Made by a program: the position numbers and the translations under genes
Shown: in pieces, positions 5,193 to 59,402 of the stretch
Layout: each line of letters opens with the position of its first letter
Numbering within the stretch: the stretch's first letter is position 1
The notes under the pieces: model-generated
Told to the model about the DNA's origin: nothing
The model's input: the letters and a program-made list of their open reading frames with translations, nothing else
The model's database searches: none
Assembly: GCA_043823745.1 (NCBI GenBank)
Contig: JBDRAN010000028.1
Coordinates: 3,116-67,115 of the forward strand
Source of the DNA: Candidatus Omnitrophota bacterium
GTDB lineage: Bacteria; Omnitrophota; Gorgyraeia; Duberdicusellales; 4484-171
DNA length: 64,000 bases
Direction of reading: 5' to 3'

Positions 5193-5382
5193 AGGCTTGG
5201 GCATTTTTTATGCAGCACAAATAAGCACGCGCCCCCCATGCTGCTTTGGTATAGCCGTGATTTTACTTGCTAGTTCGAGATATAATTTGCTTGTTTCCAC
5301 CCGTACTTGGGCTATAATACAGTTTCGTATAGGGAATTTATTTATTTACGGAGCATAGGAGCGCTTGAGAGAATGAGGATTT

Positions 5383-6105
5383 ATGGCCAAAGATAAGATT
5401 TTCAGCAAAAAGCAGTCAGCGATTGACTTTAATTTTAAAAAGAAGACGGCAGCGGTCTTTGATGATATGCTTAACCGCTCGGTCCCGTTTTATCGGGAGA
5501 TCCAGCGCATGACGACCGAGATCGCCGCTGATTTTGCCTTACCCGGGACTAATGTGTATGATTTGGGTTGTTCGACAGGGACTACGCTGCTTGCGCTGGA
5601 TAAGAAATTACCGGAGGATGTTTCGTATATCGGGTTCGATTACTCTCAGGATATGCTCAATAAGGCAGAGGAGAAAATAAAAGCTCATAAGGTTAAGCGG
5701 CCGTATAAACTTTTCTGCCGCGATTTAAATAACGGGGTTCCGGTTGAGAACGCCTCAGTGGTGATTTTTACGCTTACGCTGCAGTTTGTGCGCCCCCTGG
5801 TGCGCCAGAAAGTTATCGAGGAGATCGCCCGGGGAATCAATAAGGGGGGATGCCTCATTTTGATTGAGAAAGTTTTGAGCCTTGATTCCAAGCTTAACAG
5901 GCTTTTTATTAACTATTACTATGAGTTTAAGAAGCGGCAGGGATACAGCCGGCTTGAGATCGCGCAGAAGCGCGAAGCGCTTGAGAACGTGTTGATTCCC
6001 TACCGGCCGGAGGAGAACCGCCAGCTGCTGCTTGAAAGCGGTTTTAAAGAATGCGATATGTTTTTTAAGTGGTATAACTTCTGCGGAATGCTCGCCTTAA
6101 AATAA
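5383..6105 (+). CDS. cmoA: Carboxy-S-adenosyl-L-methionine synthase CmoA.
   Basis: Similarity to E. coli CmoA is strong. Matching blocks are VFDDMLNRSVPFY, GTNVYDLGCSTG, NASVVIFTLTLQF, GYSRLEIAQKREALENV and YNFCGMLALK. Confidence 0.8.
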   Translation: MAKDKIFSKKQSAIDFNFKKKTAAVFDDMLNRSVPFYREIQRMTTEIAADFALPGTNVYDLGCSTGTTLLALDKKLPEDVSYIGFDYSQDMLNKAEEKIKAHKVKRPYKLFCRDLNNGVPVENASVVIFTLTLQFVRPLVRQKVIEEIARGINKGGCLILIEKVLSLDSKLNRLFINYYYEFKKRQGYSRLEIAQKREALENVLIPYRPEENRQLLLESGFKECDMFFKWYNFCGMLALK

Positions 6106-21387: not shown

Positions 21388-21403
21388 AGTATAGTAGTTA
21401 ACG

Positions 21404-21600
21404 CTAATTAACGCTAATTGGAAACGCTAATTTACGCGAATCAAACGCGAATTCTCGCGAATAAATTGTCCTACGTCCAAGTGAGCCTGGCGCTCCTGCG
21501 CCGTGCGAACGAACGTCCCACGTCCTACGTCCCACATTCCCACACGTCCCAGCGTACGCTGACGTTCCACGCTTACATTTTATACTGGATATCCTAACAT
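21404..21600. repeat. Short direct-repeat region (AACGCTAATT x3, CGCGAAT x3, GTCCCACGTCC x2) in the divergent ispH/DUF134 promoter region. It is related to the repeats at 17690-17760.
   Basis: The repeats are visible in the sequence. Confidence 0.35.
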
Positions 21601-21694
21601 ACAAACCCGCCAAGCGCAAATGGGGCATGCGATGGGCTTGACAACGCCAGGGTGTCTGGTATTATGAACGCATGTTCATAACCAAGGAGCGTGC

Positions 21695-22006
21695 ATGAGG
21701 CCTAAAAAAACGCGTTGGATCAAATGCGTGCCGCAGGTTCGTTGTTTTAAGCCCCTGTGTAAGTCGTTGCGCCGCGCCGGCAAGGTATACGTAAGCCTTG
21801 ATGAGTTTGAAGCTTTGCGGCTTGCAGACTTAGAGGGCTTGGATCAGGTCAATGCGGCGGCCGCGATGCATGTTTCCCGACCGACTTTTTCCCGTATCGT
21901 TAGCGCGGCGCGTAAAAAAGTCGCCGATGGTTTAGTTAATATCAAAGTTATATGTATCGAGGGAGGCTGTTGCAAGATTAAGCGTAAGAGAAAAGACATA
22001 CGATGA
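21695..22006 (+). CDS. DUF134 (UPF0251) predicted DNA-binding protein.
   Basis: It contains the DUF134 signature LDEFEALRLADLEGLDQVNAAAAMHVSRPTFSRI and a Cys-rich C-terminus. Confidence 0.6.
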   Translation: MRPKKTRWIKCVPQVRCFKPLCKSLRRAGKVYVSLDEFEALRLADLEGLDQVNAAAAMHVSRPTFSRIVSAARKKVADGLVNIKVICIEGGCCKIKRKRKDIR

Positions 22007-22111
22007 AGGAGAGAAGGTTTTTTTGAATATTCGGGGAGTATTCTTAGCAGGTATCTATATAAAAAAAGGCAGGACTTAGGCCGCGATTACCTTAATTACA
22101 GGGGGGGGAAA

Positions 22112-22549
22112 TTGAAGAAACTATTTTTCGCTTTTCTGGTGTCTGTCGCACTAAGTAGCGGCGGCATACTATTTTCACCGTTAGCGCACGCAGCAGATGT
22201 TGCAGAAGGTACTCACGTGGTTGCGTATTATTTTCACGGGATATTTCGTTGTCCGACATGCCACAAGCTTGAGCAGTATTCAAAGGAAGCCATAGAATCT
22301 AACTTCAAAGATGCGCTTTCTTCCGGCACGTTGGAGTTTAAAGTCGTAAACATAGAAGATAAAGGCAATGAACACTACGGAAACGATTACCAGCTTTATA
22401 CTAAATCGCTCATTCTGTCATTATTTAAAGACGGTAGGGAAGTAAAGTGGAAAAACCTTAATAAGATTTGGGAATACGTCGGTAACAAACAAAGATTTAT
22501 TGATTATGTTAAGGGCGGAGTAACCGATTTCCTGAAGGAAGCTAAATGA
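22112..22549 (+). CDS. Secreted thioredoxin-like protein with a CxxC motif.
   Basis: It has a signal peptide and FRCPTCHKLE. The start is TTG. Confidence 0.5.
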   Translation: MKKLFFAFLVSVALSSGGILFSPLAHAADVAEGTHVVAYYFHGIFRCPTCHKLEQYSKEAIESNFKDALSSGTLEFKVVNIEDKGNEHYGNDYQLYTKSLILSLFKDGREVKWKNLNKIWEYVGNKQRFIDYVKGGVTDFLKEAK

Positions 22550-23235
22550 CAGAGATATTAATAGGTTTTGTATCAGCGTTATGGCTAGGAATTCTGACAT
22601 CCATTAGTCCGTGTCCTTTGGCCAGCAATGTGGCTGCAATTTCATTTCTCTCTAAGAAAATAACTCATCCGGCGCTTGTGTTTATTTCCGGTCTTGCCTA
22701 CACGCTCGGTAGAATGCTCTCGTATGCAGTTTTAGGATGGATTATTATCAATTCTTTTTTAAGTGTTCCCCTCATTGCCCAGTTTTTGCAGAAGTATATG
22801 GGGAAAGTCCTGGGGCCGCTTTTAATTCTTACCGGTTTCATTCTATTTGGGTTAATTACTATCCGTTTGCCGAAAGTGTCACTATCGCAGGGGCATCAGA
22901 ATAAACTTGCGGAGTCCGGCGCTTTGGGTGCCTTTTTACTCGGCTTTATTTTTGCTCTGGCTTTTTGTCCTATTTCTGCCGCGTTATACTTCGGGAGCAT
23001 TATCCCCTTAGCGATTAACTGTAAAGGCGGCATTGTTCTGCCGTTTATTTATGGGATAGGCACCGGGTTACCGGTTCTTGTATTTGCTGTTGCCATTGCC
23101 TTGGGGGTGACATCCTTGAGCCATTGGTTTAAAAAAATTGCACGGCTTGAATACTACACTCGTAAAATTACCGGAGCCATATTTATTATTGTGGGTTTGT
23201 ATTATATAGGAATGTATATAGTACGGTTATTTTAA
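22546..23235 (+). CDS. CcdA/DsbD-family transmembrane thiol-disulfide electron transporter.
   Basis: It has six TM helices, with Cys in TM1 (SISPCPLAS) and in TM4 (LAFCPISAA). Confidence 0.65.
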
Positions 23236-23248
23236 TGAGGAGGCACAC

Positions 23249-24457
23249 GTGGAGAGAGCTATGTATAAAAAAAGAAGCTTAAGTTTCTTTGAGAGATATC
23301 TTACGCTGTGGGTTTTTGTATGTATCGCGTTAGGTGTATTGATCGGTACGATTGCTCCGCCGGCGGCGAAATTTCTTGACGGTCTTTCGATTTATGTAAG
23401 TGGTGCGCCGGTTGTTTCTATCCCTATAGCTATTTGTCTTTTTTTTATGATGTATCCCATAATGGTAAAGATTGATTTTGCAGAAGTTATAAAAGCAGGA
23501 AAATCCCCCAAACCGGTATGGTTGACGCTTTTTGTAAATTGGGCAATAAAACCTTTTACCATGTACGGTATTGCGTTTCTGTTTTTGGGGGTCCTATTTA
23601 AAGGGTTCATCGGAGTAGAGGCGGTTGATTTTGTGAAGCTTCCTCCGGGAGCTGACTGGTTGTTGGGCTCCATACACGGCGCAGGAATGGTTGTTATGCA
23701 CGAAGGTTTAAAAATGCTTCAAGTGCCGCTCTGGCGCAGTTATTTTGCCGGGTGTATTCTGCTCGGTATTGCTCCCTGTACCGCTATGGTTTTGGTATGG
23801 GGGTTTCTTGCCAAAGGTAATGACGGCCACACGCTCATTATGGTTGCGATTAATTCGCTGACCATGCTTTTATTGTATGGAGTTTTGGGCGGATTCCTTT
23901 TAGGCGTTGGAAAAATGCCGGTTCCCTGGCAGGCGTTATTATTATCGATCGTTATCTATGTAGCGTTGCCCCTTGTGGCAGGATACTTTTCGCGCAAGCT
24001 GATAGTATCACGTAAAGGCATAGTGTGGTTTAACGAGAAGTTCCTTCATATATTGTCACCCGTTTCAATTATTGCACTTTTATTTACTCTGGTGTTGCTG
24101 TTTTCTTTTAAGGGAGAAATTATTCTTGTGCAGCCGTTAACGATTTTCTGGATAGCGATCCCGCTTTTTATCCAAACGTGTTTAATCTTCGCAATTACCT
24201 ACTGGACGGCAAAGAAATTAAAGTTACGCTACGAGGACGCGGCTCCATCGGCAATGATCGGCGCAAGCAATCACTTTGAAGTTGCTATTGCCACCGCGAC
24301 TATGCTTTTCGGGATTTCATCAGGAGCGGCGCTGGCTACCGTTGTCGGCGTTCTCATTGAAGTACCGGTTATGTTGATGCTTGTTAAATTCTGCTTACAA
24401 ACACAGAATTGGTTTACCCCGTTAGAAAGAAGGCCCCGCCCCCTGTGGGAGGGGTAA
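23249..24457 (+). CDS. acr3: ACR3-family arsenite efflux transporter.
   Basis: It has the [11 protein letters not shown]-terminus and 10 TM helices, which fits the ArsB/Acr3 family. Confidence 0.8.
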
Positions 24458-24466
24458 GATATTCAG

Positions 24467-24498
24467 AGCTCACACGGGGTTTAAAGCCCGTGTGAGCT
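24467..24498 (+). terminator. A 12-bp stem hairpin, AGCTCACACGGG-gtttaaag-CCCGTGTGAGCT, downstream of acr3.
   Basis: The inverted repeat is perfect, but the U-tract is weak (TTTC). Confidence 0.35.
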
Positions 24499-24558
24499 TT
24501 CTAACGGGGTTTACGCGCGAAAATACTTAAGAAAAGGAATAATTCGAAAGGAGGAGTC

Positions 24559-24714
24559 ATGGGAGAGAAAAAAAGTGAAAAGAGCGCCGGTAAGTGTAAA
24601 GGGTTTCTTGGACGCTTGATTGAAAAAATGGATAAAAAACTTCTCGAGAAAGCGAAAAAAAATTCCTGCTGTTGCGGGGATGACCGGACCGGAAAGGATT
24701 CATGCTGCAAGTAG
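24559..24714 (+). CDS. Small Cys-rich protein of 51 aa, [51 protein letters not shown].
   Basis: I translated it by hand. An AGGAGG RBS sits 4 nt upstream. It is below the ORF-track size cut-off. Its 3' end overlaps the start of the next gene. Confidence 0.4.
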
Positions 24715-25661
24715 CGGTTGACCGGCTGACCTATTCATTATTGGGGTTTAACCCGGCATCGCGCCTGGCGCAGGCGTTTAATTTTTTTATCTACGATTCG
24801 GTAAAAATCCTTGCGCTTCTTTTTGTGTTGATCGCAGTTATAGGATTTTTTCGCAGCTTTCTACCCGCGCGTGTTGTGAAAGCATGGCTGGTGCGCGGCA
24901 GGGGTGTTGCAAATTTTCTTGCGTCGGCTTTTGGCGCGGTAACGCCGTTTTGTTCCTGTTCCTCAATTCCTATTTTTCTAAGTTTCCTTGAGGCGGGGGT
25001 ACCCTTGGGTGTTTCCTTTTCGTTTTTGATAACCTCGCCGCTCATTAATGAGTACCTGGTGATTTTGATGGTGAGTTTTTTTGGCCGGAAGATCACCGCC
25101 GCCTATGTCGCAAGCGGTCTTCTCATGGGAACAATACTTGGGATTATTCTTGGAAAAATGAATCTTGAAAAATATCTGGTTGCCGATATCGCTGAATATG
25201 CACACGCCAACATTCGCGAAAGAGATTACCGTGGTTTTAGCGCGCGTGCGATTTTTGGTTTGAATGAAGCTATTTCAATTGTCAAAAAATTGTGGCTTTG
25301 GGTGCTTGCAGGGGTTGCGTTGGGCGCTTTTATTCATAACTATGTCCCTCAAGACGCCATTCAAGCTATTATTGCCAAGACAGGCTTGTTTTCCGTTCCA
25401 ATCGCAACCCTCCTGGGGGTACCGATGTACGCCAGCTGCGCCGCCATTGTTCCGGTCGCCGTAGTGCTCTTTTCCAAGGGTGTGCCTCTGGGCACCGCGC
25501 TTTCCTTTATGATGGCAACTGCCGCTCTTAGCCTTCCTGAAGCGGTCATGTTGCGCCGGGCGATGAAACTTACCCTTATCGCTATCTTTTTCGGGGTTAC
25601 CACGCTGGCGATTATTCTGACCGGTTATCTTTTTAATTTTCTGCAGCATATTTTATCCTAG
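24702..25661 (+). CDS. arsP: DUF318 permease, ArsP-like (organoarsenical efflux).
   Basis: It has 8-10 TM helices and the [10 protein letters not shown] motif characteristic of ArsP. Confidence 0.6.
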
Positions 25662-57665: not shown

Positions 57666-57929
57666 GAGGGTTCTGCCTGGTTTGGCCAATGGTTTTCGTG
57701 ATAGTGTTGACAAGTTTCCCGGGTATGCTAAACTATAATACTATTATTAGGAATTGTAGAGGAGGGTTCGGAAATGCAGATGCATTTTCGGAGGTTATGG
57801 TGATGGTCGGGCCGCCATCGTGCATAGCGCTATGCATGGTGACGGCTTTTTGTTTCGAAACCCGTTACCGCACGGTACGTACGTAAAAAGTTTATGCGAT
57901 ATAATGATGTGATAGGGAGTGTTTCGTCT

Positions 57930-59402
57930 ATGATGCTTCACTATATTTCAATTTTTTTGAGGAGCGTGAAGATCGTTGATATCGTTGATATCGCGATCAT
58001 TTCGTTGTTGATTTATATTTTGCTGATTTGGTTTACACGCGCCCGCGCGAAATTTATGTTTATCGGCATGGCAATTGTGGGCGGTATTTATTTTGTAGCG
58101 CGCTATTTCGGTCTCTATTTGACCACCATGGCGCTCCAGGGTTTTTTTGCGTTTACCCTTATTATGATTGTGGTGATATTCCAGGATGATTTTCGCCATT
58201 TCTTTGAAAGTATTGCTATGGTGGGCGTTCAGCCTAAGCGACGTCTGTCAGCCTCGTTCAGCCAGAACATCATGAGCGTAAGTAACTCCTTTACCAATTT
58301 TTCACGAAAAAGAATAGGAGCGCTCGTTATCATACGGGGGATTGATCCTCTTGACCGGCATCTTGAGGCGGGGAATGCCCTTGACGGTATGATAAGCCAA
58401 CCGTTGCTTGAAAGCATTTTTGATCGTCATACACCGACTCACGACGGCGCGGTCATCATCGAGGGAGATCGGATCGCTCGCTTTGGATGCTATCTGCCGC
58501 TTTCTACCAATAGTGAGGCTATCGGTCGCGCCGGAACGCGTCATGCGGCCGCATTAGGGCTTGCTGAGCGCGTGGACGCATTGTGCCTCGTTGTTTCAGA
58601 AGAGGATGGCAGCATCTCCGTAGCGCAAGAAGGACGGATGAGGCATTTGCGCGATGCCGCGCATCTTGATGCGATACTTGAGGCTTTTTATCAGAGAAAA
58701 TTCCCGCGTAAAAAGGGAAACATCATTGTCAGCTTTCTTACCAGGCATATCGCAGAAAAAATTATAGCCGTTATTCTCGCCTGTGGTTTCTGGTTTACGT
58801 TTGCCCATCACACCGAGCTTATTCGTCGCGATTTTGTCGTGCCCCTTGAGTATCGCAACCTCGCGCCGGCCGCAGTCATTAAAGAGCCTAAGCCGAAAGA
58901 AGCGACCGTTACCTTAAGCGGCACGCAGCAGGAGTTTAATCTTCTTAAGCCTCAGGAGTTAAAAATATCACTTAACATGGAAAACGTCGGCGACGGTGAG
59001 CACACGATCGAGCTCACCAGGGACTCGTTGGGACCTCTTGCGGGGCTTTCGGTGGTTAACATTGAACCTGCCGCGGTTACGCTTGATGTGTATAGAATTC
59101 TTACAGTGATGGTTCCGGTAGAACTTAAGACAAAAGGCAAGGCGCCTTCAGGCGTTACGATTGCCACGATACGCCTGGAGCCTGAGGAATTGACTGCGCT
59201 CATTTCAAGCACCCTCGCCCAGAAGGCGTTTACTATTGTCACCGAGCCCATTGATCTTAAGCTGATAACGGCGGATACGACACTTACGCCCGGATTCGTG
59301 GTTCCCCCGGATATCCGTTTTCCGGATAATAAACGACCGGAAGTTAAAGTGATTGTTGATGTTGTTGAGCGTGATCAAAGCCAAACATCCGGTACCCCGT
59401 AA
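57930..59402 (+). CDS. cdaA: Diadenylate cyclase CdaA fused to a CdaR-like regulator with YbbR-type repeats.
   Basis: It has three N-terminal TM helices. The DAC domain has DGAVIIEGDRIA and GTRHAAALG (RHR-like). A C-terminal beta-rich region of about 230 aa follows. An RBS AGGGAG sits 10 nt upstream of ATG 57930. Confidence 0.75.
   Translation: MMLHYISIFLRSVKIVDIVDIAIISLLIYILLIWFTRARAKFMFIGMAIVGGIYFVARYFGLYLTTMALQGFFAFTLIMIVVIFQDDFRHFFESIAMVGVQPKRRLSASFSQNIMSVSNSFTNFSRKRIGALVIIRGIDPLDRHLEAGNALDGMISQPLLESIFDRHTPTHDGAVIIEGDRIARFGCYLPLSTNSEAIGRAGTRHAAALGLAERVDALCLVVSEEDGSISVAQEGRMRHLRDAAHLDAILEAFYQRKFPRKKGNIIVSFLTRHIAEKIIAVILACGFWFTFAHHTELIRRDFVVPLEYRNLAPAAVIKEPKPKEATVTLSGTQQEFNLLKPQELKISLNMENVGDGEHTIELTRDSLGPLAGLSVVNIEPAAVTLDVYRILTVMVPVELKTKGKAPSGVTIATIRLEPEELTALISSTLAQKAFTIVTEPIDLKLITADTTLTPGFVVPPDIRFPDNKRPEVKVIVDVVERDQSQTSGTP

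Follow-up and report, generated by a model that had tools for sequence, protein, structure and literature searches.

A cysteine-rich DUF134/UPF0251 protein as candidate autorepressor of an ars-type operon in Omnitrophota

Genes and promoter at the locus

The 64,000-nucleotide stretch of DNA analyzed here, part of contig JBDRAN010000028.1 of a Candidatus Omnitrophota bacterium and below called the window, carries six genes in a row that look like an ars-type detoxification operon, and the first of these genes encodes a small, cysteine-rich protein of the DUF134/UPF0251 family. Comparing this locus with those of related genomes, we found DUF134 orthologs at the head of operons of this type and the same palindrome in front of them. 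On this comparative basis it seems probable that the DUF134 protein is the repressor of its own operon, and that it would be released from DNA when a trivalent arsenical binds to its cysteines.

The initial annotation had listed the six open reading frames (ORFs) as a DUF134 protein, a thioredoxin-like protein, a CcdA-like protein, Acr3, a 51-aa ORF and ArsP. All of them were found in that order and place, between 21695 and 25661 and on the + strand, and profile scores confirmed the DUF134, Acr3 and ArsP_1 families; concerning the thioredoxin-like and CcdA-like pair, both genes are present, but the generic labels were replaced by the named families ArsF and ArsG. The DUF134 gene (21695..22006) encodes a helix-turn-helix (HTH) protein of 103 aa, which matches PF02001 with 87.4 bits (cutoff 27, E = 1e-24). 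The match spans residues 2-94 of the protein and positions 6-96 of the 98 in the model, and the protein is 100% identical to an NCBI protein from a metagenome-assembled genome (MAG) of 'Candidatus Omnitrophota bacterium'. It is followed by arsF (22112..22549), whose thioredoxin-like product, predicted to be exported, reaches 109.7 bits with NCBIfam NF040494 (cutoff 60) and has no Pfam match; from the sequence one can read a signal-peptide-like N-terminus ending in AHA-A and a CPTC motif at residues 47-50. The start of arsG (22546..23235) overlaps the end of arsF by 4 nt, and its product is a membrane protein of the DsbD_2/CcdA-like type (NCBIfam NF040495, 273.2 bits, cutoff 200; Pfam DsbD_2, PF13386). 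Then come the gene of the Acr3 arsenite efflux permease (23249..24457; TIGR00832, 374.7 bits, cutoff 282.8) and the 51-aa ORF (24559..24714), whose cysteine-rich product has a basic helix as well as two pairs of vicinal cysteines, and for which no family match was found in Pfam or NCBIfam. The last gene (24702..25661), overlapping this small ORF by 13 nt, encodes a permease of the ArsP_1/DUF318 family (PF03773, 208.4 bits) with VTPFCSCSS at residues 80-88, so that the two features of ArsP-type permeases, PF03773 and Cys-x-Cys, occur together in it.

Upstream of the DUF134 gene lies the best promoter match found between 21300 and 25900. It is of the sigma70 type (11/12, 16-nt spacer, + strand), with a -35 hexamer TTGACA at 21638..21643 and a -10 hexamer TATTAT, preceded by TG, at 21660..21665. 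The -10 box overlaps by 4 nt the left arm of a 20-bp palindrome, TTATGAAC-GCAT-GTTCATAA, which occupies 21662..21681, has perfect arms and no strand, and which we propose as the putative operator of the DUF134 protein. No further copy of this palindrome was found in the window, even when 2 mismatches were allowed. A ribosome-binding site, AAGGAG, can be read at 21684..21689 on the + strand, 5 nt before the ATG at 21695.

Gene order, palindrome and search for ArsR in related genomes

Relatives of the DUF134 protein were searched for by scanning one genome per species, and at least 556 species-level genomes were found to possess one; a word-indexed search returned 2330 homologs, the best 120 of which are 67-100% identical to the protein of the window. 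The locus statistics given below refer to the best 80 loci of those 556 or more genomes, nearly all of them Omnitrophota MAGs. For each DUF134 ortholog the same-strand genes located 3' of it were called and clustered, and the representatives of the clusters were checked against NCBIfam and Pfam. The DUF134 ortholog heads a same-strand run with at least one ars-type gene (or a CDF gene) in 76 of the 80 loci, and in the other four the contig ends less than 1 kb from the DUF134 gene. Its most constant partner is the ArsP_1 permease (PF03773, 71/80), followed by ArsF (49/80), ArsG (44/80), the MTH895/ArsE thioredoxin-like protein (41/80; TIGR00412, 106.8 bits, cutoff 62) and Acr3 (39/80). The arsenite methyltransferase ArsM was found in 26 loci (358 bits, cutoff 263), an ArsC-like protein of the low-molecular-weight protein tyrosine phosphatase type in seven (129 bits, below the cutoff of 174) and a CDF transporter in four.

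The commonest order among the relatives is DUF134-ArsP_1-(ArsM)-ArsE-ArsF-ArsG-Acr3, and the DUF134 gene stays first though gene order and flanking genes vary between loci. Long contigs from different assemblies carry DUF134, a 49-aa ORF, ArsP_1, a 144-aa protein, DsbD_2 and SBF, with flanks that differ. The order seen in the window, with ArsF first and the small ORF and ArsP last, occurs in none of the 80 relatives, where ArsF is never the first cargo gene. Since relatives carry ArsM, ArsE and an ArsC-like gene, the operon of the window represents, in reduced and rearranged form, a larger family of operons.

The palindrome is present in all 80 loci, as a single site per locus and 9-22 nt before the start codon of the DUF134 gene. 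Over the 16 positions of the arms, 61 sites are perfect, 14 have one change and five have two. In four of these last five the two changes mirror each other, with GAGC..GCTC in L036 and L082 and with GCAC..GTGC in L044 and L054. Conservation around the palindrome is limited to the -35 and -10 boxes, and TTGACA keeps its relative position among the orthologs, with spacers of 16-18 nt. The distance from the end of the -10 box to the palindrome was scored in a set of 80 promoters, 79 from these loci plus that of the window: it is exactly 2 nt in 56 of them and 1-4 nt in 71, and in eight, window included, the two elements overlap. Because the -10 box ends so close to the palindrome in most promoters, transcription is expected to start inside the left arm, a position that would be typical of a repressor site.

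The initial annotation had also reported that ArsR, ArsC, ArsD and ArsA are missing, which left the DUF134 protein as the only candidate regulator. All six-frame ORFs of the window were screened with phmmer, the seeds being ArsR(R773), ArsR(pI258), SmtB, CadC, both ArsC types and the ArsE, ArsM and ArsC of Omnitrophota. No homolog of ArsR/SmtB/CadC, of either ArsC type, of ArsE or of ArsM was detected in the 64 kb with these seeds, of which those for ArsR/SmtB/CadC and ArsC may contain errors, although the ArsR-family seeds recover one another at E<=1e-8; the sole match was a weak one to a generic methyltransferase at 5377-6102. The part of the statement that concerns ArsR and ArsC thus holds for the whole window; for ArsD and ArsA no model match was obtained in Pfam or NCBIfam among the six operon proteins, the rest of the window not having been screened for these two. 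In terms of known gene sets, the window holds neither the ArsR nor the ArsC of canonical arsRBC and arsRDABC operons, and of the three ArsEFG genes it has arsF and arsG with no ArsE homolog.

An equivalent search was extended to the relatives, again with phmmer and with four ArsR/SmtB-family seeds, on every ORF in a stretch reaching 3 kb upstream and 9 kb downstream, and no ArsR/SmtB homolog was detected in the 80 loci. We also scanned 150 pooled small neighbouring ORFs against Pfam: no ArsR-type family is among the 25 most frequent of the 82 families, though a single weak match could still be hidden among the others, and NikR, Fur and Rrf2 occur as singletons among the families listed. The DUF134 protein of the window itself has no ArsR-type match in Pfam or NCBIfam.

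Cysteines of the DUF134 protein and the proposed regulation

When 30 orthologs were aligned, C17, C22, C92 and C93 turned out to be invariant and C11 was found in 29; C87 of the window protein shows no such conservation. The family as a whole was collected by an exhaustive HMMER search, which gave 3358 clusters at 50% identity. In the best 150 of these the corresponding residues are typically Y17, G22 and [N/P/S][V/Y/F] at 92-93, and about 10 carry GG-CC. C17, C22, C92 and C93 are a signature specific to the subfamily and absent from typical DUF134 proteins. The latter are fused to or followed by NifB/NifX-type proteins and not by ars genes; likewise, among about 200 DUF134 genes found on plasmids, the two inspected (from E. 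coli and Morganella) are linked to NifX and not to ars genes.

The relation between cysteines and cargo was also evaluated in those carriers of the Cys pair that have diverged most, with 48-51% identity to the window protein. The gene of P0122 is followed by ArsP_1, ArsE (103.8 bits), ArsF (113.7) and ArsG (292.1), and that of P0124 overlaps an Acr3 gene (435 bits); downstream of P0134 there is a MIP-family channel, and for P0142 the contig ends at the gene. Palindromes of the ATGCAC-ATAT-GTGCA(T) type lie upstream in three of these four members; the contig of P0134 starts inside the site and preserves its right half only. Since divergent members with the Cys pair head arsenic-type genes, pair and arsenic cargo travel together beyond the Omnitrophota core. 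In the wider clade, C11 and C92-C93 are the most widely kept cysteines.

Concerning the fold, an AlphaFold2 model built on the 30-sequence alignment has a mean predicted local distance difference test (pLDDT) of 57.6 and reaches good confidence only over residues 34-80, which form a three-helix HTH. Model and fold search assign this HTH to the type of DeoR/SorC and of sigma70 region 4, and not to the winged helix of ArsR/SmtB. No solved structure of a DUF134 protein exists, and among the chains of the PDB the DNA-binding domain of B. subtilis DeoR comes closest (E=1.4e-4, with 36% identity over about 50 residues); fold and sequence searches matched the HTH part only. In the literature we found no functional study of DUF134/UPF0251/COG1342/PF02001, and nothing on regulation in what is published on Omnitrophota and arsenic. 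The suggestion of the initial annotation that the cysteine-rich DUF134 protein regulates this ars island, a new role for the family, finds support in comparative genomics, given the head position, the palindrome in front of all 80 orthologs analyzed, the cysteine signature of the subfamily and no ArsR detected nearby.

We propose that a dimer of the DUF134 protein would bind the 20-bp palindrome at 21662-21681. Bound there, it would block the transcription of DUF134-arsF-arsG-acr3-small ORF-arsP, because this site covers part of the -10 box and the point where transcription is expected to begin. A trivalent arsenical, As(III) or possibly an organoarsenical(III), would bind C11, C17, C22 and C92-C93, and the protein in this bound form would leave the DNA, so that the operon would be expressed. 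Acr3 would then export arsenite, the ArsP_1 permease and its small CC-pair partner would probably export organoarsenicals or other thiol-reactive species, and ArsF with ArsG would give either the ArsEFG function or a periplasmic thiol-reductase relay. What is new in this proposal is a regulator from a different and uncharacterised family, while the logic is the ordinary one of an ars operon controlled by a metalloid.

Several points weigh against it. DNA binding, repression and arsenic binding by the DUF134 protein rest on inference and not on experiment, and co-transcription in the window is assumed across a gap of 105 bp between the DUF134 gene and arsF, where relatives have overlapping genes. 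The locus counts are not independent events, because the 80 genomes are related to one another. Both cysteine-bearing tails are unreliable in the model (pLDDT <50 at residues 1-33 and 86-103), and therefore no metal-site geometry can be stated. The ArsR screen covers 64 kb of this genome, and an ArsR encoded elsewhere could act in trans. Moreover, Zn or an Fe-S cluster would be equally possible ligands of the four or five conserved cysteines. The NCBIfam models nearest to the ArsP_1 permease are those of the Cu/Zn (SO_0444) and SaoE efflux transporters, both far below cutoff, and a CDF transporter is present in four operons; given these matches and this cargo, the effectors could include soft metals or metalloids more broadly.

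The same cysteines and transporters can be read in another way, which we consider rather unlikely: the DUF134 protein would be an autoregulator acting on the palindrome and not a direct arsenic sensor, its cysteines would hold a structural Zn, carry an Fe-S cluster sensitive to redox state or thiols, or bind other soft metals, for example Cd, Zn, Cu or Sb, and the operon would answer to thiol or metal stress in general. An As(III) site needs three cysteines, and the conserved ones number four to five; the wider clade, however, keeps mostly C11 and C92-C93, which is a set of three. As to the cargo, the most constant partner is the very permease that best matches the SO_0444 and SaoE models, and some operons include ZitB-like CDF, Usp and FeS-motif proteins, but curated models make the cargo overwhelmingly arsenic-specific (Acr3, arsenite methyltransferase, ArsE/F/G, ArsC-like). 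Typical DUF134 proteins are linked to cluster-binding proteins of the NifB/NifX type, which speaks for this reading, whereas the divergent members with the Cys pair again head Acr3 or ArsEFG.

A repressor role for the DUF134 protein also supposes that it is this protein that binds the palindrome. The palindrome could instead be bound by another protein, for example of the LexA type, with the DUF134 protein acting as activator, as accessory factor or not as a regulator, and with an ArsR lying outside the 64 kb searched in this genome acting in trans; we regard this as improbable. The core GAAC-N4-GTTC resembles the Gram-positive SOS box, and the core GAACATATGTTC is one that we take to match the Cheo-box consensus. 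The flanks TTAT...ATAA are, however, as conserved as the core, and ArsR was not found near any of the 80 operons. To this we add the distribution of the site in metagenomes, where the 20-mer with the ATAT spacer was searched for as an exact match and found in at least 120 stretches, against about one chance occurrence expected in the collection according to our own estimate. Of 121 sites inspected for their nearest genes, 88 have a DUF134 gene of the subfamily starting within 60 nt. The remaining ones are at contig ends, in a 34-bp repeat, or 5' of other genes of the DUF134 family or of their usual partners: a DUF134-NifX fusion (L210), a 138-aa DUF134 protein (L128, L178), pairs of a DUF5320-like and a DUF134 gene (L111, L191) and NifX-like genes (L110, L131, L138). 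The LexA box was tried as identity of the palindrome and rejected: the flanking genes belong to the DUF134 family, are NifX-like or accompany the repeat, and no SOS gene (lexA, recA, uvr) was seen among the nearest genes of the 121 sites, so that the likeness of GAAC-N4-GTTC to a LexA box does not explain them. The factor common to the sites is a DUF134-family gene, and this indicates DUF134 proteins as the binding partners. The same holds for enterobacterial plasmid loci of the DUF134-NifX type (L094, L095), which have two GCATATGC palindromes upstream, also centred on CATATG.

The sites of the repeat, on the other hand, would fit a different binder, since about 10 exact 20-mers are found inside a 34-bp palindrome, GGTCAGT-TTATGAACATATGTTCATAA-ACTGACC (L098, L099, L107, L145 with two copies, L150, L165, L181, L200 and L201), and no DUF134 gene was found near these copies. 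It looks like a separate dispersed repeat of some metagenomic organism, apparently unrelated to the operons. Among the metagenome sites, those of L111 and L191 are directly adjoined by a second palindrome, TTATGGGCATATGCCCATTA.

A role of the palindrome at the RNA level, as a hairpin of the 5' untranslated region with an effect on the stability or translation of the mRNA, is very improbable. Given the distances reported above (1-4 nt in 71 promoters, overlap in eight), a start about 7 nt past the -10 box would leave most of the left arm out of the RNA; the symmetric double changes do preserve pairing and 7 of the 12 single-arm changes would form G-U pairs, but the other 5 would break it, and the ribosome-binding site is located downstream, outside the hairpin.

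Returning to the DUF134 protein as repressor, the sites found outside the subfamily suggest that CATATG-centred palindromes may be the operator of DUF134 proteins throughout the family, a family-wide operator hypothesis that comes as a by-product of this work. In its widest form, for which we see the arguments as evenly balanced, DUF134/UPF0251 proteins would be widespread ligand-sensing autoregulators on such palindromes, and one branch, dominant in Omnitrophota, would have lost the NifX-type partner, gained a cysteine site (C11, C17, C22, C92-C93) and become the arsenic sensor and repressor of ars operons. In this form of the hypothesis the branch would be a metalloid regulator of independent origin that takes the place of ArsR/SmtB in a whole phylum.

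Known systems, cargo proteins and neighbouring features

The literature that we found on arsenic describes ArsR/SmtB proteins as the regulators of ars operons. The system of the window shares several features with arsRBC and arsRDABC: like ArsR, the DUF134 protein is a small HTH protein, a proposed dimer, encoded by the first gene of the operon that it would control, with a palindrome at the promoter. It also has conserved cysteines, including a vicinal pair, that are candidates for three-coordinate binding of As(III); vicinal Cys pairs are used by the ArsRs of Acidithiobacillus and Corynebacterium. Unlike ArsR, it belongs to another family and fold, with an HTH of the sigma70-region-4/SorC-DeoR type, no winged helix and no match with ArsR seeds or Pfam models, and its cysteines are found not in the HTH but in the two tails, N-terminal and C-terminal. 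DeoR of B. subtilis, a member of the SorC family and the closest solved structure by both sequence profile and fold search, was solved on a palindromic operator; in contrast to the DUF134 protein, which has only short cysteine-bearing tails, DeoR possesses a large C-terminal effector domain binding sugar phosphates. With typical DUF134/UPF0251 proteins the window protein shares the domain, the N-terminal motif RP..R...P...F.P, the HTH, the IEGG motif and CATATG-centred palindromes upstream. The typical members have Tyr17, Gly22, no Cys pair after GG and partners that are NifX-like or DUF5320, whereas the type found in the window has the cysteines and the ars genes.

To our knowledge, all repressors of bacterial ars operons characterised so far are ArsR/SmtB proteins. 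If our proposal is correct, there is a second family of regulators, structurally unrelated to ArsR/SmtB, and protein folds that sense arsenic have arisen more than once. DUF134, for long a domain of unknown function, would receive its first function, its first operator and a testable ligand hypothesis. The annotation of ars operons in uncultured phyla, where the lack of arsR is now read as an unregulated or incomplete operon, would improve, and arsenic biosensors could make use of a compact sensor of 100 residues together with a defined 20-bp operator.

The cargo proteins keep their cysteines across the relatives. The CxxC of ArsF is kept in 98-100% of 50 orthologs, the transmembrane cysteines C23 and C141 of ArsG in 98-100% of 45, C84 and C86 of the CSC motif of ArsP_1 in 99-100% of 73, and Cys177 of Acr3, within GIAPCTAM, in 100% of 40. 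Homologs of the small cysteine-rich ORF, 48-60 aa long, were found in 13 of the 80 loci (cluster C6, L009-L085), always directly before an ArsP_1 class of about 319 aa; the CC pairs at 37-38 and 49-50 are kept in all or nearly all of them, and the basic helix is conserved. From this pattern we consider the 51-aa ORF to be a real gene. Among the loci that reach ArsF/ArsG, ArsE occurs in none of the six with the small ORF and in 35 of the 44 without it, and small ORF and ArsM are mutually exclusive as well. Speculatively, the 51-aa protein may be a thiol partner or chaperone of the permease, or a substitute of ArsE.

The second and third genes of the window pass the NCBIfam models of ArsF and ArsG, and many relatives have MTH895/ArsE directly before ArsF. 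ArsEFG of Shewanella putrefaciens 200, attributed to Chen, Zhang and Rosen (2019) and known to us through family names and citations, reportedly reduces the nitro groups of trivalent roxarsone and nitarsone and extrudes aromatic amino-arsenicals. The window differs from that system in having no ArsE, and its cysteine layout would also fit a thiol-disulfide relay. ArsE-ArsF-ArsG runs are found in L012-L087 and L090, where ArsE is a cytoplasmic CxxC protein of 78 aa. Together with the CcdA-like ArsG and the exported CxxC protein ArsF, it would resemble a transmembrane electron relay for thiol-disulfide exchange, a layout that the names 'nitroreductase subunit' and 'efflux permease' do not describe well.

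Some operons of the relatives carry additional genes. A ZitB-like CDF transporter is found in L017, L037, L042 and L060, Usp in L042, L050 and L053, a 269-aa protein with a PF04060 Fe-S motif in L053, L062 and L079, and a DGC-domain protein in L034 and L035. Their presence hints at a wider cargo for metal or thiol stress. Some loci with an operon of the Omnitrophota type come from assemblies labelled otherwise, namely 'uncultured Planctomycetia/Planctomycetales' (L015, L020, L021, L028 and others) and 'Deltaproteobacteria' (L026). These labels are probably artefacts of labelling or binning rather than evidence of a spread to other phyla.

In the window, the gap between the DUF134 gene and arsF (22007-22111) holds a run of T, and neither a terminator nor a second copy of the operator was detected in it. 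The DUF134 gene of the relatives abuts or overlaps the next gene, and the gap may be the scar of a rearrangement that moved the small ORF and arsP to the end of the operon.

The genes flanking the operon are unrelated to it: ispH/lytB lies upstream on the opposite strand, and a CrtI-like oxidoreductase followed by a bestrophin-like protein lies downstream. Between ispH and the DUF134 promoter there are degenerate short tandem repeats, at 21398-21462 and 21513-21535, with units similar to TTAACGCTAA (period 10/21) and ACGTCCC repeated 3.3 times; they are not conserved in the relatives. Far from the operon, an nhaA-I RNA (Rfam RF03057, a riboswitch class) was found at 57764-57820 on the + strand, with 55.8 bits against a gathering score of 37, just 5' of an ORF of 502 aa at 57894-59402.

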